From Squalus acanthias (Eukaryota): a stretch of 64,000 nucleotides of DNA. The translations under genes and the position numbers were made by a program. The stretch spans positions 434,001 through 498,000 of the forward strand of contig JASTWF010000332.1 of the NCBI GenBank assembly GCA_030390025.1, given 5' to 3'. The notes below the pieces were generated by a model. It had not been told where the DNA came from and did not search any database. It was given only the letters and a program-made list of their open reading frames with translations. This document shows positions 7,781 through 46,709 of the stretch, piece by piece; the stretch's first letter is position 1, and each line of letters begins with the position of its first letter.

Positions 7781-7849
7781 AAGTGTATTGTTTTAATTTA
7801 AATTAATTAAAGGGTAAATAATATTAATAAATTTAATTAATTACATAGA

Positions 7850-8806
7850 ATGGGAGAGCAGGTGATGTGTTACTGCTGCAATATGTGGGAGCTGGTGGAC
7901 ACCATTGATGTTCACGGTGATCACATTTGCAGTAAGTGTTGGCTGCTCGAGGAACTCCGGCTCCGTGTTGATGAGCTGGAGTCCGAGCTTCAAACACTGC
8001 GACACATCAGGGAGGGGGAGAGTTACCTGGACTCTGTGTTCCAGGAGGTAGTCACACCAATTAGATTAACTAATTCAGATGTAGCCCGTGATCAGGGACA
8101 GGAGGGTGTGACTACGAGTGAGGCAGGTACGGGGATCCAGGAGGTAGTGTTGGAGGAGCCGCAGCCCTTGCTCTTGTCCAACAGGTTCGAGGCTCTTACT
8201 CCCTGTGAGGACGGGAGCAGGGACTGCAGGGAGGATGAGCAACCTGGCCACAGCACCGTGGTACGGGGAGCCATTCAAGTGGGGGGAGTAAAAAGAAATG
8301 TTGTAGTGGTAGGGGATAGTATCATTAAGGGGATAGATAGGGTTCTTTGCAGCCGAGAGCAAGAGTCCCGAAGGCTGTGTTGCCTGCCCGGTGCCAGGGT
8401 TAAGGACATCTCCTCTGGGCTGGAGAGAAACTTGGAGTGGGAGGGGGAAGATCCAGTTGTCGTGGTCCATGTTGGTACCAATGACATAGATAGGACAAGG
8501 AATGAGGTTCTGCTGAGGGAGTATGAGCAGCTAGGGGCCAAATTAAAAAACAGAACCTCTAGGGTAGTAATCTCTGGATTACTACCTGAGCCACGAGCAA
8601 ATTTGGCTAGGGTAAATAAAATCAGAGAGTTAAATGCGTGGCTCAAAGACTGGTGTGGGAGAAATGGGTTTTGCTTCCTGGGACACTGGCACCAGTACTG
8701 GGACAGGAGAGAGCTGTTCCGTTGGGACGGACTTCACTTGGCCAGTGCTGGGACTAGAGTCCTGGCGAATCGAATAACTAGGGCTGTAGAGAGGGCTTTA
8801 AACTAA
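7850..8806 (+). CDS. CR1 ORF1p (zinc finger/leucine zipper + SGNH esterase domain), intact
   Basis: CxxCxM...CxKC followed by a heptad coiled coil; GDSII, CLPGA, HVGTND and DGLHL motifs. Confidence 0.93.
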   Translation: MGEQVMCYCCNMWELVDTIDVHGDHICSKCWLLEELRLRVDELESELQTLRHIREGESYLDSVFQEVVTPIRLTNSDVARDQGQEGVTTSEAGTGIQEVVLEEPQPLLLSNRFEALTPCEDGSRDCREDEQPGHSTVVRGAIQVGGVKRNVVVVGDSIIKGIDRVLCSREQESRRLCCLPGARVKDISSGLERNLEWEGEDPVVVVHVGTNDIDRTRNEVLLREYEQLGAKLKNRTSRVVISGLLPEPRANLARVNKIRELNAWLKDWCGRNGFCFLGHWHQYWDRRELFRWDGLHLASAGTRVLANRITRAVERALN

Positions 8807-8844
8807 TTAGTGGGGGGGAGGTTTCAAGAGAGCAAAAAATAAAA

Positions 8845-11783
8845 ATGTCAGCGGAGAAGGCAATAGAGCAAAGTAGCAGTGGGGTAATTAAAAACCAGAG
8901 CGTGTCAGGAAGGGACAGAATATATAAAGATAAAGGTAAAGTAGTAAAGGGGGTAAAAGCAGGAATAAATTGTCACAAAACATATTTAAAAGTTCTTTAT
9001 CTGAATGCACGCAGCATTCGTAACAAAATAGACGAGTTGACGGTACAAATAACTACGTATGGGTATGATCTTGTGGCCATTACAGAAACATGGCTGCAGG
9101 GTGACAACGACTGGGAATTAAATATGCCAGGGTATTTAACAATCAGGAAGGACAGGCAGGAAGGAAGAGGAGGTGGGGTAGCTATGTTAATAAAGGAAGG
9201 AATCACTGTATTACAGAGAAATGATATTGGGTCAAAGGATCAGGATAATGAAACAGTTTGGGTGGAGATAAGGAATAATAAGGGGAAAAAAACACTAGTG
9301 GGAGTAGTATATAGGCCTCCTAATAGTTGCAACTCTGCTGGAAGAAGTATTAATCAGGAAATAGTTGGGGCATGTAATAAGGGAACAGCTATAATTATGG
9401 GGGATTTTAACTATCATATTAACTGGACAAATCAAATTGGGCAGGGCAGCCTTGAGGAAGAGTTTATTGAGTGTATTAGGGATGGATTTCTTGAGCAGTA
9501 TGTAACTGATCCTACAAGGGGGCAAGCAACCTTGGACCTGGTCCTGTGTAATGAGTCAGGATTAATTAATAATGTCCTAGTTAAGGATCCCCTTGGAATG
9601 AGTGACCATAACATGGTTGAATTCCATATCCAATTAGAGGGTGAGAAGGTTGGTTCTCAGACAAGCGTACTGAGCTTGAATAAAGGAGACTATGATGGTA
9701 TGAGAGCAGAATTGATTAAAGTGGACTGGGAAAATAGATTAAAGGGTAAGACGGTACATGAGCAGTGGTGTTCATTTAAGGAGTTATTTTACAACTTTCA
9801 AAAAATATATATTCCACTGAGGAAAAAAGGGTGTAAAAGAAATGACAGCCATCCGTGGCTAAGTAAAGAAATTAAGGATAGTATCCAACTAAAAACAAGG
9901 ACATATAAGGTAGCCAAACTTAGTGGAGGATAGAAGATTGGGAAGTCTTCAAAAGACAGCAAAAAGTAACTAAAGGATTGATTAAGAAAGGGAAGATAGA
10001 TTATGAAAATAAATGAGCAAAAAATATAAAAACAGATAGCAAGAGTTTCTATAGTTATATAAAAAGAAAAAGGGTGGTTAAGGCAAACGTAGGTCCCTTA
10101 GAGGATGAGACCGGGAAATTAATGGTGGGAAACATGGAGATGGCAAAAATGCTGAACAAATATTTTGTTTCAGTCTTTACGGTAGAGGACACTAAGAATA
10201 TCCCAACACTGGACAAACAGGCTCTAGGGGGGGAGGAGCTAAATACGATTAAAATCACTAAGGAATTGGTACTCAGTAAAATAATGGGACTCAAGGCGGA
10301 TAAATCCCCTGGACCTGATGGCTTACATCCTAGGGTCTTGAGGGAAGTGGCAGTAGGGATTGTGGATGCTTTGGTAATAATTTTCCAAAATTCCCTGGAC
10401 TCAGCAAAGGTCCCGGCAGATTGGAAAACTGCTAATGTAACACCCTTATTTAAAAAGGGTAGTAGGCAGAAGGCTGGAAATTATAGACCAGTTAGTCTAA
10501 CATCTGTGGTGGGTAAAATTTTGGAGTCTATTATTAAGGAGACAGTAACGGAACATTTAGATAAACATAATTTAATAGGACAAAGTCAGCATGGCTTTAT
10601 GAAGGGGAAGTCATGTCTGACAAATTTGCTTGAGTTCTTTGAGGACATAACGTACAGGGTGGATAAAGGGGAACCAATGGACGTAGTGTATTTAGACTTC
10701 CAGAAGGCATTCGACAAGGTGCCACATAAAAGATTATTGCTCAAGATAAAAAATCACTGGATTGGGGGGAATATTCTGGCATGGGTGGAGGATTGGTTAT
10801 CTAACAGGAAGCAGAGAGTTGGGATAAATGGTTCATTCTCGGACTGGCAACCAGTAGCCAGTGGTGTTCCGCAGGGGTCGGTGCTGGGTCCCCAACTCTT
10901 TACAATCTATATTAACGATTTGGAGGAGGGGACCGAGTGTAACATATCAAAGTTTGCAGATGATACAAAGATGGGAGGGAAAGTAGAAAGTGAGGAGGAC
11001 ATAAAAAACCTACAAGGGGATATAGACAAGCTGGGTGAGTGGGCAGAGATTTGGCAGATGCAATACAATATTGGAAAATGTGAGGTTATGCACTTTGGCA
11101 GGAAAAATCAGAGAGCAAGTTATTATCTTAATGGCGAGAAACTGGAAAGTACTGCAGTACAAAGGGATCTGGGGGTCCTAGTGCAAGAAAATCAAAAAGT
11201 TAGTATGCAGGTGCAGCAGGTGATCAAGAAAGCCAACGGAATGTTGGCTTTTATTGCTAGGGGGATAGATTATAAAAACAGGGAGGTATTGCTGCAGTTA
11301 TATAAGGTATTGGTGAGACCGCATCTGGAATACTGCATACAGTTTTGGTGTCCATACTTAAGAAAAGACATACTTGCTCTCGAGGCAGTACAAAGAAGGT
11401 TCACTCGGTTAATCCCCGGGATGAGGGGGTGGACATATGAGGAGAGGTTGAGTAGATTGGGACTCTACTCATTGGAGTTCAGAAGAGTGAGAGGCGATCT
11501 TATTGAAACATATAAGATTGTGAAGGGGCTTGATCGGGTGGATGCGGTAAGGATGTTCCCAAGGATGGGTGAAACTAGAAGTAGGGGGCATAATCTTAGA
11601 ATAAGGGGCTGCTCTTTCAAAACTGAGATGAGGAGAAACTTCTTCACTCAGAGGGTAGTAGGTCTGTGGAATTTGCTGCCCCAGGAAGCTGTATCATTAA
11701 ATAAATTTAAAACAGAAATAGACAGTTTCCTAGAAGTAAAGGGAATTAGGGATTACGGGGAGCGGGCAGGAAATTGGACATGA
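8845..11783 (+). pseudogene. CR1 ORF2 (AP endonuclease + reverse transcriptase), disrupted
   Basis: NARSI, ITETWL, GDFN, SDH; QHGF, PQGSVLGP, FADD. Frameshift near 9928 and in-frame TGA at 10014. Confidence 0.93.
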
Positions 11784-12059: not shown

Positions 12060-13690
12060 ACATAAGAACATAAGAAATAGGAGCAGGAATAGGCCACTTG
12101 GCCCCTCGAGCCTGCTCCACCATTCAATAAGGTCATGGCTGATCTTGGGCTCAAAGCCACTTCCCCGCCCGCTCCCCATAACCCTTCACTCCCTTATCTT
12201 GCAAAAATTTGTCTATCTCCACCTTAAATGTATTTAATGACCCAGCCTCCACAGCTCTCTGGGGCAGAGCATTCCACAGATTTACGACCCTCTGAGAGAA
12301 GAAATTCCTCCTCATCTCAGTTCTAAAATGACGACCCTTTATTCTAAAACTGTGCCCCCGCGTTCTAGATTTCCCCACGAGGGGAAACATCCTCTCTGCA
12401 TCTACCTTGTCGTGCCCCCTCAATATCTTATATGTTTCAATAAGATCACCACTCATTCTTCTAAATTCCAATGAGTATAGGCCCAGCCTGCTCAACCTTT
12501 CCTCATAAGTCAACCCCCTCATCTCTGGAATTAACCTAGTGAATCGTCTCTGAACTGCCTCCAATGCAAGTATATCCTTCCTTAAATAAGGAGACCAAAA
12601 CTGTATGCAGTACTGAAGGTGTGGTCTCACCAATACCCTGTACAGTTGTAGCAGGACCTCCCTGCTTTTATACTCCAACCCCTTTGAAATAAAGGCCAAC
12701 ACTCCATTTGCCTTTTTGATTACTTGCTGTACCTGCATGCTAACTTTTTGTGTTTCATACATGAGGACCCCCAGGTCCCTCTGAACTGTAGCATTTTGTA
12801 ATCTCTCTCCATTTAAATAATAATTTGCTTTTTTATTTTTCCTTCCAAAGTGTATAATCTCACACTTTCCCACATTATACTCCATCTGCCAAATGTTTGC
12901 CCACTCACTTAGCCTGTCTATATCCCTTTGCAGGTTCTTTGAGTCCTCTGCACAACTTGCTTTCCCACCCATCTTTGTATCATCCACAAACTTGGCTACA
13001 TTACACTCGGTCCCTTCATGCAAGTCATTAATGTAGATTGTAAATAGTTGAGGCCCCAGCACCGATCCCTGTGGCACCCCACTAGTTACCGTTTGCCAAC
13101 CGGAAAATGACCCATTTATCCCGACTCCCTGCTTTCTGTTAGTTAGCCAATTCTCTATCCATGCTAATATATTATCCCCAATTCTGTGACCTCTTATCTT
13201 ATGCAGTAACGTTTTATGTGACACCTTATCGAATGCCTTCTGGAAATCCAAATACACCACATCCACTGGTTCACCTTTGTCCACCCTACTCGTTACCTCC
13301 TTAAAGAACTCCAGCAAGTTTGTTAAACATGATTTCCCTTTCATAAAACCATGCTGACTCTGCTTGACTGCATTATGATTTTCCAAATGCCCTGCTACTG
13401 CTTCCTTAATGAAGGACTCCAGCATTTTCCCAACGACAGACTGGTCTATAGTTTCCTGCTTTCTGTCTCCCTCTCTTAAATAGGGGTGTTACATTTGCGG
13501 TTTTCCAATCTGCTGGGACCTCTCCAGAGTCCAGGTAATTTTGGTATATTGCAACCAATGCATCCACTATCTCTGCAGACACTTCTTTTAAGACCCTGGG
13601 ATGCAGGCCATCTGGTCCAGGGGACATGTCAACTTTTAGTCCCATTATTTTACTAAGCACTATTTCCTTAGTGATAGTAAGTACTACTTC
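12060..13690 (-). mobile_element. 5'-truncated CR1 (RT + 3'UTR), inverted
   Basis: ORFs 12151-13425 and 13406-13747 encode CR1 RT. Tail ACATAAGAACATAAGAA at 12060. Confidence 0.95.
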
Positions 13691-25505: not shown

Positions 25506-26678
25506 TCTGTCACACTGAGGTCCGGGTGCCTGTCACACTGAAGTCCCGGTGCCTGTCACACTGGGGTCCCGGTGCCTGTCACACTTGGGTCCCGGTGCCT
25601 GTCACACTGGGGTCCCGGTGCCTGTCACACTGGGGTCCCGGTGCCTGTCACACTGGGGTCCCGGTGCCTGTCACACTGGGGTCCCGGTGCCTGTCACACT
25701 GGGGTCCCGGTGCCTGTCACACTGGGGTCCCGGTGCCTGTCACACTGGGGTCCCGGTGCCTGTCACACTGGGGTCCCGGTGCCTGTCACACTGGGGTCCC
25801 GGTGCCTGTCACACTGGGGTCCCGGTGCCTGTCACACTGGGGTCCCGGTGCCTGTCACACGGGGGTCCCGGTGCCTGTCACACTGGGGTCCCGGTGCCTG
25901 TCACACGGGGGTCCCGGTGCCTGTCACACGGGGGTCCCGGTGCCTGTCACACGGGGGTCCCGGTGCCTGTCACACGGGGGTCCCGGTGCCTGTCACACGG
26001 GGGTCCCGGTGCCTGTCACACGGGGGTCCCGGTGCCTGTCACACGGGGGTCCCGGTGCCTGTCACACGGGGGTCCCGGTGCCTGTCACACGGGGGTCCCG
26101 GTGCCTGTCACACGGGGGTCCCGGTGCCTGTCACACGGGGGTCCCGGTGCCTGTCACACGGGGGTCCCGGTGCCTGTCCACACGGGGGTCCCGGTGCCTG
26201 TCACACGGGGGTCCCGGTGCCTGTCACACGGGGGTCCCGGTGCCTGTCACACGGGGGTCCCGGTGCCTGTCACACGGGGGTCCCGGTGCCTGTCACACGG
26301 GGGTCCCGGTGCCGGCCACACGGGGGTCCCGGTGCCGGCCACACGGGGGTCCCGGTGCCGGCCACACGGGGGTCCCGGTGCCGGCCACACGGGGGTCCCG
26401 GTGCCGGCCACACGGGGGTCCCGGTGCCGGCCACACTGGGCTCCCGGTGCCTCTCACACGGGGCTCCCGGTGCCTCTCACACGGGGCTCCCGGTGTTTCT
26501 CACACTGGGGTCCCGGTGCCTGTCACACTGGGGTCCCGGTGCCTGTCACACGGGGGTCCCGGTGCCTGTCACACGGGGGTCCCGGTGCCGGCCACACGGG
26601 GGTCCCGGTGCCGGCCACACGGGGGTCCCGGTGCCGGCCACACGGGGGTCCCGGTGCCGGCCACACGGGGGTCCCGGT
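25506..26678. repeat. 23-bp GC-rich minisatellite, left arm (~50 copies)
   Basis: Unit GGGGTCCCGGTGCCTGTCACAC[T/G]. Confidence 0.97.
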
Positions 26679-26872
26679 TGTGGTAACACAATACAGCTTC
26701 CTGTGACTCGAACTTTATTGCATCACTTCCTGTGATTAGTCCAGGATAAATACTGGACTGATTAGTTGGATCCTGGAGAGGCATAGAGTAAGACGTCTTT
26801 TGTATGTAGCACCTTTTTAGTTGATTAAAGCTTACTTTAAGTTCACCACGCGTAAGGCTCATTCTTACGACA
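26679..26872 (+). repeat. 5' LTR
   Basis: TGTGGTAAC...TTACGACA; direct repeat of 30926-31119. Confidence 0.97.
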
Positions 26873-26950
26873 ATTTAATCAACTTTGAAAAACTTCGCAC
26901 TCAAACTTTTTGGACGAACTCGGAACTAAGGATCCAGGGAATCACCCATC

Positions 26951-29900
26951 ATGGAAAACATCCTTAAACCATCGCGTCTTGACTTGGACCCAAACACCCC
27001 AGCAGCCGGTAAGGTGTGGAAACACTGGTATCGCACGTTTGACAATTTTCTCGAATATTGCAAGGCTGATGATGACTCAAAGTTGCGGATACTCATCAAC
27101 TGTGTCACCCCGAATGTATTTCAGTATGTCGAGGAATGGGGCAGTTACGAGGAGGCAATTCGGATGCTTAAAAGACGATACACTAAGACACCGAATGAGG
27201 TCTATGCCAGACATCTACTAGCTACAGCCCAACAAGGGCCGGAGGAATCCATTGATAAATTCCTCCAAGAGCTTCGCAGACTTAGTATGGACTGTAACTT
27301 TCAGGCGGCCTCAGCTGAGCTGTACCGTGAAGAAATGATCCGTGATGCTTTCATCTGCGGGCTTGCCTCCCCATTTATACGCCAGCGTCTACTGGAAAGT
27401 AAGACACTTGAGCTTCGGAGAGCTTATGACATGGCTTGCTCTCTAGATCTGGCAAAAAGAAATGCAGACCTTTATACAGTGCCCAGACCTCGGTCTGCTG
27501 CCTTAACTACAGTCAGGCAATTTAAGAGGCCACAGGTGAACTCTATTAGGGAGGACTTTATCCCTGACGATCAATCTGATGACTTCACTGATGAAGAGGA
27601 TGATGACCCCACTGTGGCAGCCTCTTGGCAATCTAAGAAATGCTTCTTTTGTGGTGATGAGTTTCACCCTCGGAAATTCTGCCCTGCTCGCAATGCGTTT
27701 TGCAGTCATTGCAACAAAAAGGGTCATTTTGCAAAGGTTTGCCTATCAAGAGCCTCTACGAGGGCTTATCAAGCTAAGTCCTACCGAACTGCCCCGGTAA
27801 GGGCCTTTCAAGATGTTCCGGCTAAAATCTATCGTGCTTCCTCTCGGGTTTTCTCTCGAAGAAACACACCTAGAGTTTCAGCCACTCTTTGTGCAACGAC
27901 ACCAATTACAGCTGCTTGTCCTCAGAACCTATTCCATGCAGCTACAAAAGCATCAATTAATGGACATACTTTAGATGCCTTAATTGACTCAGGTAGCACT
28001 GATAGTTTCATTAGGGAACAGATTGTTGCAGAGTTAAAGCTACATGTTTTCCCATCGGACCAGGCAATTGCGATGGCTCAGTCATCACTTAATACCAGAA
28101 TTTCTGGCTTTTGTATGGTTGAAATAACACTTAATGGTCACAGGTATCCCTCCACCCGGCTTTCGGTGCTCAAGGACTTATGTAGTGATCTTATCTTAGG
28201 GCTGGATTTTCAAAAGCAGCATAAGAAGCTCACCATTGAGTTCGGCGGATCCAAACCTGAACTCACTATTTCTAATATACGACCTCGATTACCGTTCTGT
28301 GCATTGTCAGCAGCTTCACTGGATGAACCCTCACTGTTTACCAGTATCCCTCCTCGATGCAAACCGATTATAACAAAGTCACGACGTTTCAGTCAGGAAG
28401 ACCAGTCTTTTATTGCGGCTGAGATTTCTCGGCTTTTAGCAGAGGATATCATCGAGCCTTGTTCGTCGCCATGGCGCGCCCAGGTCGTTATTGTTAAGAA
28501 CCCTCTACAACCTCACAAGAAACGGCTGTGCATTGACTATTCACAGACCATCAATCAATATACGGACTTGGACGCATACCCATTGCTGCGCATCGATGAT
28601 ATGGTTAATAAACTGGCTGAGTACACGGTGTTCTCAACATATGATCTGAAAAGTGCCTATCATCAGGTACCCTTGAAGGTCTCAGACAAGCAGTATACGG
28701 CCTTTGAAGCCAATGGACGGCTGTATCAATTTCGTCGCCTCCCCTTTGGGGTCACTAATGGAGTGGCTGTCTTCCAGCGAGCAATGGATGACCTGGTCAA
28801 ACAGGAAGACTTGAAGGATACGTTTCCTTATCTGGACAATATTACTGTCGCAGGTCGCAATCAGCGGGAACATGACGCCAATCTCCAACGATTTTGGGAT
28901 GCACTCCAGCACCGTAATTTGACATTAAATGCGGCTAAATCCATTGAGTCACAACCAACCATCAACATCCTTGGCTATTGTGTGGGCAATGGCATCATTA
29001 AACCTGACCCTGAAAGGCTTCGCCCACTCCAAGAGCTCCCGCCACCTAAGAATCCGGCCTCCTTGCGCCGGGCCCTCGGCCTGTTTGCATACTATGCTAA
29101 ATGGATTCCTAACTTCTCGGACCGAATCCAACCTCTACTGAAGGCCAGCACATTCCCACTAGACACAGCGGCTGTTGCAGCCTTTAACCTCCTGAAAAAA
29201 CAGTTGGAGAAAGCGGCTCTTCACTCCATCGATGAGAGTCTTCCTTTTGTTGTTGAGTGTGATGCCTCGGAGGTGGCGATCTCGGCCACTCTGAATCAGG
29301 AAGGTCGTCCGGTGGCATTTTTGTCCAGGACTTTTCAAGGGGCTGAGCTACATTATCCTCCAGTCGAGAAAGAAGCTACAGCCATCATAGAGGCAGTACG
29401 GAAGTGGACTCATCTCCTAGCTCGCCAGCACTTTACCTTAATCACGGACCAGCGATCGGTCGCCTTCATGCTCGATAATCGAAAACGGACCAAAATTAAA
29501 AATAATAAAATCCAACTTTGGCGGCTGGAATTGGCCTCTTTTGGTTACACCATCCACTATCGACCTGGCAAGGAGAATGTGGCTCCGGATACCCTCACAC
29601 GAGCATTCTGCTCCGCCATGGCACCCTCTACGCTCGTAGACATCCATGATGGGTTGTGTCATCCGGGCGTTACTCGCATGCTACACTTCGTGCGGTCCCG
29701 AAATCTCCCATTCTCTACCGGGGATGTAAAGAAGATGTGCTCGGACTGCAGAGTCTGTGCGGAATTGAAACCTCAGTTTTTCCGCACCTCGGGTGGTATA
29801 CTCATACATGCAACCCAGCCAATGCAACGGCTTAGCATCGATTTTAAGGGGCCGTTGCCCTCTTCAACTCGCAACACTTATCTATTGACCATGGTCGATG

Positions 29901-30907
29901 AGTATTCCCGTTTTCCGTTTGCCTTTCCCTGCCCCAATATGTTGACGACCACGGTTATCAGCTGCCTTGAGCAGGTATTTGCTTTCTGTGGCATGGCATC
30001 CTATGTTCATTCGGATTGGGGCCCTTCTTTTATGTCAGGAGAACTCAAGGCCTATCTCTCGGAACGGGGTATTGCTGCCAGCAGAACGACGCCTTATCAT
30101 CCGGTCGGGAATGGGCAAGTCGAGCGTTTTAACGCTATCATCTGGAATGCGGTACGTCTGGCTTTGAGATCTCGGGGCCTACCCAACCAGCAATGGGAAG
30201 CAGTACTTCCAGACGCATTACACTCCACACAGTCCCTCCTTTCGACCGCCACAAATACGACGCCTCATGAACGGTTCTTCCGATTTCAGCGTCGCTCATC
30301 CTATGGGATATCTCTCCCGTCGTGGCTGACTGCAGCGGGACCAGTGCTACTCCGAAGATATGTCCGGGCGTCTAAGAATGACCCCCTGGTAGATGAGGTT
30401 GAGCTCACTGACGTCAACCCTACCTACGCCTATATTCGGTATCCTGACGGTCGGGAATCTACCGTGTCATTGCGGGATCTGGCTCCCTGCCCGCCGAAAC
30501 ATAGAGGGACACCAGGGGATGATATTGTACCAGGCACATCTCTGGGCTCGCCAGGTGCCTCTCATCACGATCTGGATCTGACGCCGGCTGGTATCTCACT
30601 CCAGCGTGCCGACCTGGGGCAGACTGACTATGAGCCCGTCGGGGCTCGCACGCGCAGCCACGATCCACCCCGTACCGTATGCTCGGAAACGGATCTGCCA
30701 CAGCCCTGCCCGACACCCGTTCGGGCACCAGTACACAGTCAGGATCGTCCTGACCCCTCACAGAGCGGGCTGGATCACTCGGACTCTGGTCCACGGCCCG
30801 CGGCGGGTAAACGGGCTAGGGGCCCTCTACCGCTACGAGAACCCAAACGGGTGGGGCTCTCCCTCGTCCGGCGGCTACGAAATGGATGGAGCATCCCGGC
30901 CTCCTAA
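26951..30907 (+). CDS. Gag-Pol polyprotein (Gag with double Zn knuckle, protease, RT, RNase H, integrase)
   Basis: CFFCG..H....CPA....CSHCNKKGHFAKVC; ALIDSGS; LPFG, YLDN; ECDAS; H..CHPG..C.VC, IDFKG, HSD.G, VERFN. The PR-RT-RH-IN order indicates Gypsy. Confidence 0.96.
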   Translation: MENILKPSRLDLDPNTPAAGKVWKHWYRTFDNFLEYCKADDDSKLRILINCVTPNVFQYVEEWGSYEEAIRMLKRRYTKTPNEVYARHLLATAQQGPEESIDKFLQELRRLSMDCNFQAASAELYREEMIRDAFICGLASPFIRQRLLESKTLELRRAYDMACSLDLAKRNADLYTVPRPRSAALTTVRQFKRPQVNSIREDFIPDDQSDDFTDEEDDDPTVAASWQSKKCFFCGDEFHPRKFCPARNAFCSHCNKKGHFAKVCLSRASTRAYQAKSYRTAPVRAFQDVPAKIYRASSRVFSRRNTPRVSATLCATTPITAACPQNLFHAATKASINGHTLDALIDSGSTDSFIREQIVAELKLHVFPSDQAIAMAQSSLNTRISGFCMVEITLNGHRYPSTRLSVLKDLCSDLILGLDFQKQHKKLTIEFGGSKPELTISNIRPRLPFCALSAASLDEPSLFTSIPPRCKPIITKSRRFSQEDQSFIAAEISRLLAEDIIEPCSSPWRAQVVIVKNPLQPHKKRLCIDYSQTINQYTDLDAYPLLRIDDMVNKLAEYTVFSTYDLKSAYHQVPLKVSDKQYTAFEANGRLYQFRRLPFGVTNGVAVFQRAMDDLVKQEDLKDTFPYLDNITVAGRNQREHDANLQRFWDALQHRNLTLNAAKSIESQPTINILGYCVGNGIIKPDPERLRPLQELPPPKNPASLRRALGLFAYYAKWIPNFSDRIQPLLKASTFPLDTAAVAAFNLLKKQLEKAALHSIDESLPFVVECDASEVAISATLNQEGRPVAFLSRTFQGAELHYPPVEKEATAIIEAVRKWTHLLARQHFTLITDQRSVAFMLDNRKRTKIKNNKIQLWRLELASFGYTIHYRPGKENVAPDTLTRAFCSAMAPSTLVDIHDGLCHPGVTRMLHFVRSRNLPFSTGDVKKMCSDCRVCAELKPQFFRTSGGILIHATQPMQRLSIDFKGPLPSSTRNTYLLTMVDEYSRFPFAFPCPNMLTTTVISCLEQVFAFCGMASYVHSDWGPSFMSGELKAYLSERGIAASRTTPYHPVGNGQVERFNAIIWNAVRLALRSRGLPNQQWEAVLPDALHSTQSLLSTATNTTPHERFFRFQRRSSYGISLPSWLTAAGPVLLRRYVRASKNDPLVDEVELTDVNPTYAYIRYPDGRESTVSLRDLAPCPPKHRGTPGDDIVPGTSLGSPGASHHDLDLTPAGISLQRADLGQTDYEPVGARTRSHDPPRTVCSETDLPQPCPTPVRAPVHSQDRPDPSQSGLDHSDSGPRPAAGKRARGPLPLREPKRVGLSLVRRLRNGWSIPAS

Positions 30908-30915
30908 TCTTTTGC

Positions 30916-30925
30916 GGGGGGAGAA
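30916..30925 (+). promoter_or_regulatory. Polypurine tract
   Basis: GGGGGGAGAA immediately before the 3' LTR. Confidence 0.85.
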
Positions 30926-31119
30926 TGTGGTAACACAATACAGCTTCCTGTGACTCGAACTTTATTGCATCACTTCCTGTGATTAGTCCAGGATAAATAC
31001 TGGACTGATCAGTTGGATCCTGGAGAGGCATAGAGTAAGACCTCTTTTGTATGTAGCACCTTTTTAGTTGATTAAAGCTTACTTTAAGTTCACCACGCGT
31101 AAGGCTCATTCTTACGACA
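30926..31119 (+). repeat. 3' LTR
   Basis: Direct repeat of the 5' LTR. Confidence 0.97.
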
Positions 31120-32178
31120 CCGGTGCCTGCCACACTGAGGTCCCGGTGCCTGTCACACGGGGGTCCCGGTGCCGGCCACACTGAGGTCCCGGTGCCTGTC
31201 ACACGGGGGTCCCGGTGCCGGCCACACGGGGGTCCCGGCGCCGGCCACACTGGGGTCCCGGCGCCGGTCACACTGGGGTCCCGGCGCCTGCCACACGGGG
31301 GTCCCGGCGCCTGCCACACGGGGGTCCCGGCGCCTGTCACACGGGGGTCCCGGCGCCTGTCACACGGGGGTCCCGGCGCCTGCCACACGGGGGTCCCGGC
31401 GCCTGCCACACGGGGGTCCCGGCGCCTGCCACACGGGGGTCCCGGCGCCTGCCACACGGGGGTCCCGGCGCCTGCCACACGGGGGTCCCGGCGCCTGCCA
31501 CACGGGGGTCCCGGCGCCTGTCACACGGGGGTCCCGGCGCCTGTCACACGGGGGTCCCGGCGCCTGTCACACGGGGGTCCCGGCGCCTGTCACACGGGGG
31601 TCCCGGCGCCTGTCACACGGGGGTCCCGGCGCCTGCCACACGGGGGTCCCGGCGCCTGCCACACGGGGGTCCCGGCGCCTGCCACACGGGGGTCCCGGCG
31701 CCGGCCACACGGGGGTCCCGGCGCCGGCCACACGGGGGTCCCGGCGCCGGCCACACGGGGGTCCCGGCGCCGGCCACACGGGGGTCCCGGCGCCGGCCAC
31801 ACGGGGGTCCCGGCGCCGGCCACACGGGGGTCCCGGCGCCTGCCACACGGGGGTCCCGGCGCCTGCCACACGGGGGTCCCGGCGCCTGCCACACGGGGTC
31901 CCGGCGCCTGCCACACGGGGGTCCCGGCGCCTGCCACACGGGGGTCCCGGCGCCTGCCACACGGGGGTCCCGGCGCCTGCCACACGGGGGTCCCGGCGCC
32001 TGCCACACGGGGGTCCCGGCGCCTGCCACACGGGGGTCCCGGCGCCTGCCACACGGGGGTCCCGGCGCCGGCCACACGGGGGTCCCGGCGCCGGCCACAC
32101 GGGGGTCCCGGCGCCGGCCACACTGAGGTCCCGGCGCCGGTCACACTGAGGTCCCGGCGCCGGCCACACGGGGGTCCC
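31120..32178. repeat. 23-bp GC-rich minisatellite, right arm (~46 copies)
   Basis: Unit mostly GGGGGTCCCGGCGCCTGCCACAC. Confidence 0.97.
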
Positions 32179-44116: not shown

Positions 44117-44737
44117 GTAAGAACAGCAATCCCAGCCAAGCTGTCCTGTCAGTGGAAGTTAATGAATGTACATAGGACCAATGCAAAGGAGTGGAAGGCC
44201 TGAAACATGGGGGGCGATTTTCCCAGCCCTGAGGAGGCGGGTTTGGAGGCGGGACAGTTGGCAAAATCGCCAAAAGTAAGGGCGGGTTCGGAACCTACCT
44301 CCAACCCGCCTCTGCGCAATTTTGCCGGAGACGGGTTTCATGGGTGTGATTCGGTCCCGCCTCCATCAGTTGGGAGAGGTAGTTAAGACCCTTAAATAAT
44401 AGTTAAGGGCCTCTATAATCCTATTTTGACAGGCCTTTGTTATTTTACCACATTTTCAGCGTGTTCCACGACCCTCCTAAACCACGCCAGCTAATCCTGG
44501 CGGGTTGACAAGTGGGTGGCCTCCTCACAGCTGCAGCTCCACCATTAAAACGGAGCTTTCATCAGGGAGCAGTTGCAGGTAGCAGAACTTTTGTTCCACA
44601 GGTCTTTCAGTACTTTTAGCAGGCCTACAGAAGTTGGAGGTGCTGCAGCTTCTATCTCTCAACTGTGGGACCTCCTTGGAAGACCCTCTCCCCGCTTAGA
44701 CTGAGCGCTTCCCCAACGGAGGTATTTGCCAGCAGCA

Positions 44738-45935
44738 TGGGAGCCATTTATTTCCTTTCACCATGGACCTCAGATTCGGATGAGGAGCAGCCATCGCAGC
44801 AGCAGAACCAGGCAGTTCAGCAGCAACAGCAGCAGAAACACCAACCTCCTGCTCACCCACCTGATGCTGCACAGGGCAGAAGGCGCCAGCACATGGAAGC
44901 ACGTCGCCGCAGGAGATACCCCCCTCTCAGGGTTTACAGAGAGAGGATGAGCTACCTCAACATGACTGAGCAGCAATACCAAAGGAGGCTGAGAGTTTCG
45001 CAACAGGTTGTCGGAGACATCTGCGCACTGCTGCACCAACACCTGGAGCCCAGAGGAGCGGGTGGACACCCCTTACCAGTGGCTGTCAAAGTCACCACCG
45101 CACTCAACTTTTTTTCCTCAGGCTCCTTCCAGGGATCATCAGCAGACATCAGCGGCATCTCCCAGTCAGAGGTTACCGATGCCCTTTTCGCAAAGGCGCA
45201 CAATTACATCCACTTCTCAAGGGATCAAGCAAGTATAACTGCGCGTTCGGTTGGCTTTGCAAATATGGCAGGCTTGCCAATGGTGCAGGGCGTCATAGAC
45301 TGCACACATGTGGCCCTTAGGGCACCCCATCAAAACCCAGCTATCTTTGTCAACCGCAAGGGCTTCCACTCCTCAACGTACAGCTGGTGTGTAACCAGAA
45401 GAAGGAGATTTTGCAGGTTTGTACCAAGTTCTGTGGTAGTGGCCATAACTCGTTCATCCTGCGGAACTCTAGTGTTCCTCCGCTCTTCAATCCGCCAAAC
45501 CAACTTAACGGATGGCTCCTTGGTGACAAGGGCTACCCCCTGAAGAAGTGGCTAATGACGCCGATCAGGAGGCCAGCTAATGAGGCTGAGGAGCGCCACA
45601 ACGCCAGCCACATTTCGACCAGGTCCATCATCGAGCAAACCATTGGCTTGCTGAAGATGCGATTCCGATGCCTTGACAGATCAGATGTAGCCCTGCAGTA
45701 TTCAGCAGCCAGGGTCTCCAGAATGGTCGTGGTCTGCTGTGCACTGCACAGCATGGCACAGCGTCACGGCTTGCAGCTTCCTGATGAGCAAGTGGCTCAG
45801 TTCATAGCCTCCTCAGATGAGGAGAAGGAGGAGGAGGACCGAGCGGCGGCGTATCGACCAGCAGCAGCGGCAGCACGCGAGCACATGGCTGCCCGTGATG
45901 CAAGGATTGTCCTCATCCTGGCCAGATTTGCATAG
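44738..45935 (+). pseudogene. Harbinger (HARBI1-like) DDE transposase, frameshifted
   Basis: [38 protein letters not shown]. 1-nt frameshift near 45371. Confidence 0.9.
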
Positions 45936-46092
45936 GTTGCCCATTGTGGCACATGTGCTTGGCTCCTTCTTAACACATGATAGACAATGGACATGACTCT
46001 CTGGCCTCCTTTCACTCTGACCACCAACCTGACCACGCAAGTGTCGCGGAGCCTGCAATGTGGAGCTGCCTCAGCCAAAATAACAGATGCCA

Positions 46093-46362
46093 TCACGCCA
46101 ACAGTTTGCCATCACCTAATTTTAAAACATTCACACAGGGATGGCATTTCATCAATAAACAGAAACAATCACCCAATCTGCACACAGATCTGGAGGTTAT
46201 ATCCCTTGCCAGCTGGACCCACACAGCCTTGGTTTCTTTGGGAGGCCTCTTCCTCCCAGATGAGAGGAAGAGCACCTCCCTGCTAGCTCTCGCCCCCTCA
46301 ACCAGCATACCCAGCACCTCATCCGAGAACCTCGGGGAGGCCCTTGCCTTGGAGCTGGCCAT
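46093..46362 (-). pseudogene. Harbinger Myb/SANT-like DNA-binding protein remnant
   Basis: PRFSDEVLGMLVEG...REVLF...W..LA..I trihelix/MADF-like N-terminus. Confidence 0.75.
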
Positions 46363-46709
46363 TCTTCAAGGAGATAAAAGTTTGGAGGTGGTGCAGCATC
46401 GACCAAAATCCAGTGGAATGAGCCAACGCAGCAAGCAGCCCTTAAATGAAGCTGGATAAGTGACGTCAGCAGAGGCGAGTTTCAGTCCCAAAAGACTCAT
46501 TGGCCCAGGGGAACCCACACCTCTGAAATCAACTGGCCAATTCGGGAAAAATCGCAAATTTTTCCCACCTGACAGTGGAGGCGGGTTTGGAACCCACCCA
46601 AACCGAAACCCGCCTCCAACCCTCCTCCATTGGGAAAATCGCCCCCCTAATGTCTCTGGAAACCTAAATGCATGACAATCTCCATCACTTATACTGCCCA
46701 CGTTTATAG

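Follow-up and report, generated by a model that had tools for sequence, protein, structure and literature searches.

A probable self-priming Ty3/Gypsy retrotransposon in Squalus acanthias and its relatives across animals

In the Tf1 retrotransposon, the RNA's first 11 bases pair with its primer-binding site (PBS), and cleavage by RNase H falls between bases 11 and 12 (from the available portions of PMC7175516, PMC5341516 and PMC4600332). Self-priming of this kind is described for the Tf1/sushi group and for Tcn1, and is predicted for the Copia lineage TAR, in the accessible text of PMC6317226 and PMC10085805. TAR (Houba, Osr-1) and Tcn1 carry the same signature as the one considered here, at least 10 bp of complementarity beginning 0-5 bp past the LTR (available part of PMC6317226), and the present element likewise has a PBS that matches its own LTR, lies 0-5 nt past the LTR and lacks TGG. 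However, TAR belongs to Ty1/copia and Tcn1 to the chromoviruses, both in plants, whereas the clade described below consists of non-chromovirus Gypsy elements in animals. Hairpin priming before the PBS has also been postulated (PMC3601003), and hairpins without a primer site occur in fungal GalEa (PMC5445492) and a bivalve TRIM (PMC6934838), as far as the excerpts of those papers go.

Self-priming is regarded as a hallmark of the chromoviruses of the Tf1/sushi group, the one parallel being that predicted for Copia in plants. No report of it in a non-chromovirus animal Gypsy clade was found in the passages of published papers searched. The likeness of the present element to Tf1 and Tf2 of S. pombe, Tj1 and the Tf1/sushi group lies in a PBS complementary to its own LTR, here as a perfect duplex of 11 nt. 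Unlike Tf1/sushi elements, it has no chromodomain, two CCHC knuckles and no GPY/F motif, a poly(A)-type hexamer usually lies within its complementary arm, and clade-wide the duplex reaches 16 nt.

Element architecture and leader

The window, a 64,000-nt stretch of Squalus acanthias contig JASTWF010000332.1, carries a complete, intact Ty3/Gypsy LTR retrotransposon of 4.4 kb, with TG...CA LTRs, a target duplication, a polypurine tract and the domain order PR-RT-RH-IN. Its features, in window coordinates, are as follows:

26674-26678, + strand: left 5-bp target-site duplication (second copy at 31120-31124)
26679-26872, + strand: 5' LTR, 194 bp, TG...CA, with 2 differences from the 3' LTR
26954-30907, + strand: single, unbroken Gag-PR-RT-RH-IN open reading frame, 1317 aa counted from the first Met
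27641-27742, + strand: two Gag CCHC zinc knuckles
27947-28210, + strand: aspartyl protease (Pfam PF13650)
28520-28978, + strand: core of the reverse transcriptase, its YxDD site reading YLDN (PF00078)
29234-29542, + strand: RNase H (PF17917), the predicted primer-releasing nuclease by analogy with Tf1
29630-30103, + strand: integrase zinc-binding and core domains, with no chromodomain 3' of them
30916-30925, + strand: polypurine tract
30926-31119, + strand: 3' LTR, 194 bp, in which the arm recurs at 31066-31076

No chromodomain was found by domain search in the whole protein or in its last 268 residues, which matched 0 families, in a search that detected Chromo in the C-termini of 8 of 20 references. 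In its own genome the family is abundant and young, with all 40 scored matches being 99-100% identical (864 candidates in a 3.7-Gb genome). Both arms are retained in 54 of 57 own-family copies, one having lost the PBS and two carrying single changes, and the copies are too similar for covariation to be testable among them. The element is surrounded by a minisatellite of 23-bp GC-rich units, at 25507-26678 (approximately 51 units) and 31120-32178 (approximately 46 units); the flanks of other own-family copies differ among themselves, so there is no sign of insertion targeting. At the reverse transcriptase motif, most of 121 proteins comprising that of this element (P0001) and its relatives carry YLDN and a minority YLDD, the second aspartate thus being often replaced in elements that appear recently active; a paper search on the YLDN motif found nothing relevant.

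The leader has the components that had been reported for it, which together with the helices predicted here are:

26819-26829, + strand: putative arm for self-priming, complementary to the PBS at every base
26824-26829, + strand: ATTAAA poly(A)-type hexamer by sequence, forming the 3' half of the arm, function putative
26874-26884, + strand: PBS, beginning one base past the LTR end, without TGG
26814-26816, + strand: possible distal extension of the duplex, lying beyond two mismatches and inferred as two A-U pairs and one G-U pair with 26887-26889
26830-26842, + strand: predicted hairpin opening at the first base past the arm (26830-26834 with 26838-26842), pairing probability 0.95 against a shuffled-loop mean of 0.40
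26851-26869, + strand: U5 hairpin predicted by folding (CGTAAG/CTTACG stem), its sequence not conserved between families

The original prediction held that an exact 11-nt reverse complement of the LTR replaces a tRNA-type start, with an ATTAAA in the LTR and a CGTAAG/CTTACG stem in the enclosed loop, and each of these is present at the locus. A lone A at 26873 separates the 5' LTR from the PBS, no TGG occurs within 8 nt, and the stem folds as 7 bp (26851-26857 with 26863-26869). Beyond the exact match, pairing resumes at positions 14-16 after two mismatches. When the LTR was shuffled by mononucleotides, a match of at least 11 nt arose by chance in 9 of 20000 trials; one was also reached at 117 of 20000 random places in the window, a figure probably inflated by palindromic repeats. 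Against a narrow panel of 7 distinct tRNAs, Lys and Cys only, the best match of the PBS was 4 nt; the panel derived from an Rfam search yielding 63 genes, of which 30 loci were read, all Lys or Cys. The 66 nt from 26819 to 26884 have a predicted fold of -15.3 kcal/mol (z = -3.64), and the two longest stretches folded were unremarkable (z = -1.15 and -1.29).

Covariation across relatives and controls

Relatives of the polyprotein numbered 801 at E <= 1e-50, the best 120 of these 801 being mostly 46-64% identical, and those named among the matches listed come from cnidarians, crustaceans, one tunicate, nematodes, an aphid and a sea cucumber; a search of a viral contig set found nothing. Two further families in the same genome (Gag approximately 58% identical) hold the identical 11-mer in both places with differing loops, and also show matching outer (distal) pairs. 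Of 80 metagenome loci, 33 had a Gag N-terminus and 28 of those a testable leader, the five left out having a missing leader (L052, L056, L088), a replaced leader (L032) or a split across contig ends (L046). In the 28 leaders, 11 of 11 positions were paired in 20, 10 of 11 in seven and 9 of 11 in one, with pairing always beginning at the second base past CA. A 5-bp target duplication is common to this element, L034, L057 and L066, and AA precedes TG at the left end in most members having a 3' LTR.

Covariation of the two 11-mers over family members, which had been named as a check on the pairing, was borne out in a set of 24 families with 18 different PBS 11-mers. At arm/PBS positions 1-11, 257 of 264 cells were Watson-Crick pairs, against a mean of 195 and a maximum of 215 in 5000 shuffles, which ignore the relatedness of the families. 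Three or four pair types were seen at positions 5-8 and 12, and in a 14-by-14 matrix of PBS against LTR, each PBS fitted its own LTR best or equal best. The pairing continues outward, with 88 of 144 cells paired at positions 12-17 (shuffle maximum 74), remaining above the shuffles at positions 12-16 and falling to chance level at 17 (4/24). Throughout a wide clade, the arm-PBS match is a real feature and is kept under selection.

The register is constant at LTR end +2 even though the loops vary from 20 to 67 nt across the 24 families, this register being the one scanned and never extending inward as a Watson-Crick pair. The LTR end is independently backed by an LTR pair or partial pair in 19 of the 24 families; it was picked by a pairing-maximising scan in L031, L041, L053, L065 and L079, and partly so in L040, L049 and L077, second-best placements in that scan giving 8-10 of 11 paired. 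A duplex fixed at the LTR end corresponds to primer geometry, since the 3' end of a primer must face U5 and set the end of the cDNA. All 24 families have G at position 2 of the arm and 19 have A at position 1; the four bases just 3' of the arm are likewise conserved among families.

Folding predictions across the same families gave an arm pairing probability of at least 0.8 in 22 of 24. A hairpin directly 3' of the arm was predicted in 17 of 24, with a probability of at least 0.69 (shuffled means 0.19-0.48); it was individually significant (p <= 0.05) in 11 of 24 families by pairing probability and in only 2 of 24 by a cruder longest-stem test. The three-duplex structure of the Tf1 type was not predicted for this element by folding: a U5 stem adjoining the PBS was predicted, but no duplex joining the leader past the PBS with the loop. 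In contrast to the Tf1 'pretzel', as outlined in the available part of PMC10085805, the predicted helices here sit within the loop.

Among control elements, TGG sites were present in all four of the same-genome Mag-type elements whose LTR pair could be used; these elements also have double knuckles. The other control Gypsy loci, 21 with a flanking repeat and drawn from contaminating contigs, had TGG in 12 (self-match of at most 8 nt) and were unreadable in seven. Two chromodomain controls with full LTRs lacked TGG and gave self-matches of 9 nt at +3 and 10 nt at +2, their loops being approximately 90-115 nt in length as against the shorter loops of the present clade. Judged from these leaders, the self-pairing signature marks the expected self-primers plus this clade. 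No chromovirus was found in the element's own genome, where SH3_Tf2-1 matches were retrovirus-like and Chromo matches had no reverse transcriptase or integrase nearby (4 of 16 examined). That genome also holds a second young family, abundant, Mag-type, with many ORFs of 1335 residues and a tRNA PBS (including L191). Separately, GTDB prokaryote genome records gave 107 matches to eukaryotic Ty3/Gypsy elements (L211-L290), most likely from contaminating contigs.

Phylogenetic placement

Trees were built from RT-RH and integrase with 53 rows, then 43 once 10 near-duplicates were removed, with chromodomain references labelled by Pfam domains (Tf1 and sushi themselves not being among them), Mag references labelled by visual comparison with the alignment in PMC2871265 supplement 3, and the SURL-type C-clade absent. 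The element and its relatives form a single long-stemmed clade (100/100), whose sister is a pair of Mag-type elements (93/89, unstarred), both stems being long. In approximately unbiased (AU) tests on a 29-row subset, union with three Tf2-like chromodomain elements was rejected (p-AU 0.000225), as was union with five chromodomain elements (p 0.0162). A comparison of the reverse transcriptase phylogeny with chromoviruses had been named as a further check, and these rejections, the separate clade and the failure of the domain search to find a chromodomain all support a separation from chromoviruses; by its sequence, the element is not placed as a member of the Tf1/sushi group. The TGG-bearing L288 falls in the sister group of those chromoviruses (100/100). 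Two origins of self-priming would be the simplest reading of these trees; less simply, an ancestral self-primer may have been followed by several switches to tRNA.

Self-priming here probably has an origin separate from that of the self-primers known in yeast and fish. Of the suggestion that this may be an independent origin, the separation from chromoviruses is supported, but such an origin would not be unprecedented, given the prediction for Copia TAR in the accessible text of PMC6317226. The description of the element as Mag-like also stands only in part: the double CCHC knuckle is there, but RT-RH is 29-31% identical to Mag-type elements, no closer than to other lineages. Members of the Mag lineage (Mag, Jule, Gulliver, SURL) resemble the element in having two CCHC knuckles, no chromodomain, a single ORF and short LTRs; however, the reverse transcriptase motifs of Mag, Jule and SURL (PMC2871265 supplement 3) match L191 and L204, and not this reverse transcriptase, when compared by eye, and the Mag-type elements of this genome use TGG sites.

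Other candidate affiliations share some features. Cigr-1 of Ciona, compared by tabulated features only, is alike in its two CCHC knuckles, lost GPY/F and missing chromodomain (PMC2774666 supplement 3), but its protease tetrad TANG is not present in this element, and no Ciona protein occurs among the 120 best-listed relatives, where a tunicate relative does. The flatworm Saci2/lennie elements are alike in a single Gag-Pol ORF and variable primer sites, but Saci2 has a 4-bp target duplication where this element has 5 bp, and a PBS assigned to tRNAs, according to the available part of PMC12471100. The same portion of that paper attributes the highly variable primer sites of Saci2 families to different tRNAs. 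The element's reverse transcriptase is 25-35% identical to all outside lineages, its nearest solved structure is Ty3 RT, and atlas matches carry generic Gag names only. The clade may already be named somewhere, since surveys of molluscs and annelids list many Gypsy clades, in main texts without the term PBS as far as the accessible parts go (PMC6238403, PMC8556966). Elsewhere in the trees, the chromodomain Gypsy elements L213, L240 and L246 were placed apart from other chromodomain elements, and a set of own-genome retrovirus-like elements with one zinc knuckle (L192-L199, L210, L174-L180), whose reverse transcriptase is approximately 25% identical to P0001, served as outgroup only.

Priming model and alternatives

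The claim that this element self-primes is strongly supported by the covariation, the fixed register and the controls, and its primer is likely to be a 5' piece of the element's own RNA, generated in the manner of Tf1, as in the whole clade. Transcription would start at, or a few bases upstream of, the arm (approximately 26814-26819), and the arm would fold back on 26874-26884, a hairpin stacking from base 26830 onward. RNase H would cut at the 3' end of the arm as in Tf1, after 26829 or possibly 26828 according to the number of bases, one or two, that integrase removes, leaving a 3'-OH facing U5. Reverse transcriptase would then copy U5 and the rest of R before transferring to the 3' R. The hexamer of the 3' LTR would serve as the poly(A) signal, with the 5' copy being paired and then cut away. 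Finally, the primer would be copied during plus-strand synthesis, keeping arm and PBS matched and so accounting for their covariation.

The original prediction placed the transcription start near 26819; because the covariation reaches 16 nt, which suggests a start further upstream in many families, 26819 itself is a putative start only. Pairing to position 16 would not fit a primer fixed at 11 nt clade-wide, and implies a primer of perhaps up to approximately 16 nt, with a start perhaps up to 5 nt upstream of 26819. The RNA data showed neither a start site nor a cleavage product nor a poly(A) end: 0 reads matched in the sole raw poly(A) run and 0 contigs in one metatranscriptome; the remaining RNA runs yielded contigs that also hold LTR-flank junctions, and therefore inform neither the start, the end nor expression.

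A joint reading of these observations is offered tentatively, with slightly less than even confidence: that a deep, animal-wide Gypsy lineage, spanning cnidarians, crustaceans, insects, nematodes, echinoderms, tunicates and this genome, gained tRNA-free priming separately from Tf1/sushi, using an 11-16-nt primer from a stretch that doubles as a poly(A) signal and is cut at a conserved junction, the point at which the primer duplex has a hairpin stacked on it. If true, a single RNA element would set the primer, silence 5' polyadenylation and repair its own binding site in every round.

The poly(A) signal also underlies the first of the alternatives, in which the duplex mainly hides the signal of the 5' LTR, preventing premature 3'-end formation, while some other primer is used. 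The HIV poly(A) hairpin offers an analogy for such masking of a 5' signal. A canonical AATAAA or ATTAAA closes the arm in 14 of the 24 families, and the partner strand lies only after the 5' LTR, which would make the effect specific to the 5' end. Against this, seven families pair perfectly with noncanonical hexamers (GTTAAA four times, TTTAAA, TTAAAA and ACAAAT), and in two of these, L035 and L039, a canonical hexamer sits within the loop rather than in the duplex; a further three families resemble single-copy decay. Masking would moreover have no need for a register fixed at LTR end +2, and no alternative primer site is visible. As a replacement for self-priming it is therefore unlikely; with seven families pairing without a canonical hexamer, masking is a second role at most, and it may well be a second function of the duplex rather than an alternative.

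Similarly improbable is a primer of the element's own sequence whose source is not a short capped 5' fragment acting in cis but the R copy at the 3' end, another RNA molecule, or a long 5' leader cleaved nowhere but at the arm's 3' end. Because the arm is in both LTRs, sequence alone cannot separate the copies, and the pairing past 11 nt shows that upstream bases matter, which are always present in the 3' copy; however, the sharp stop of covariation at position 17 is the expectation for a nearby 5' end, the short loops and high arm pairing probabilities favour folding in cis, and the Tf1 precedent works in cis. Priming by a host RNA such as a tRNA half or other small RNA, with the LTR match incidental, is very improbable: Copia lineages do have half-tRNA primers without TGG (available part of PMC6317226), and the tRNA comparison covered Lys and Cys rather than the full set, but a host RNA would be unable to change in step with the LTR of each family, as the 18 PBS 11-mers of the 24 families do, each fitting its own LTR best or equal best in the 14-family matrix.

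Self-priming from the element's own RNA, if as widespread in animals as these families suggest and with an RNA architecture of its own, would show that reverse transcriptase and RNase H can be repeatedly co-opted for primer making. Silencing of LTR elements by 3' tRNA fragments acts through the tRNA primer site, according to the portion of that literature available, a site that such self-priming elements would lack. The PBS type of the clade would also explain why PBS-based annotation misses or mislabels such elements. As this family is young and abundant in a genome of vertebrate size, its start site, cut site and primer should be directly mappable.

Other mobile-element remains lie elsewhere in the window. 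LINE-type remains on the + strand at 7841-11783 comprise an ORF with a GDSL/SGNH esterase domain followed by endonuclease and reverse transcriptase pieces, and a second LINE reverse transcriptase piece lies on the opposite strand at 12151-13488; we take both to be typical of CR1/L2 elements. A DDE_Tnp_4 transposase piece, presumably Harbinger-like, occurs at 45321-45935, within the region 44620-46459.
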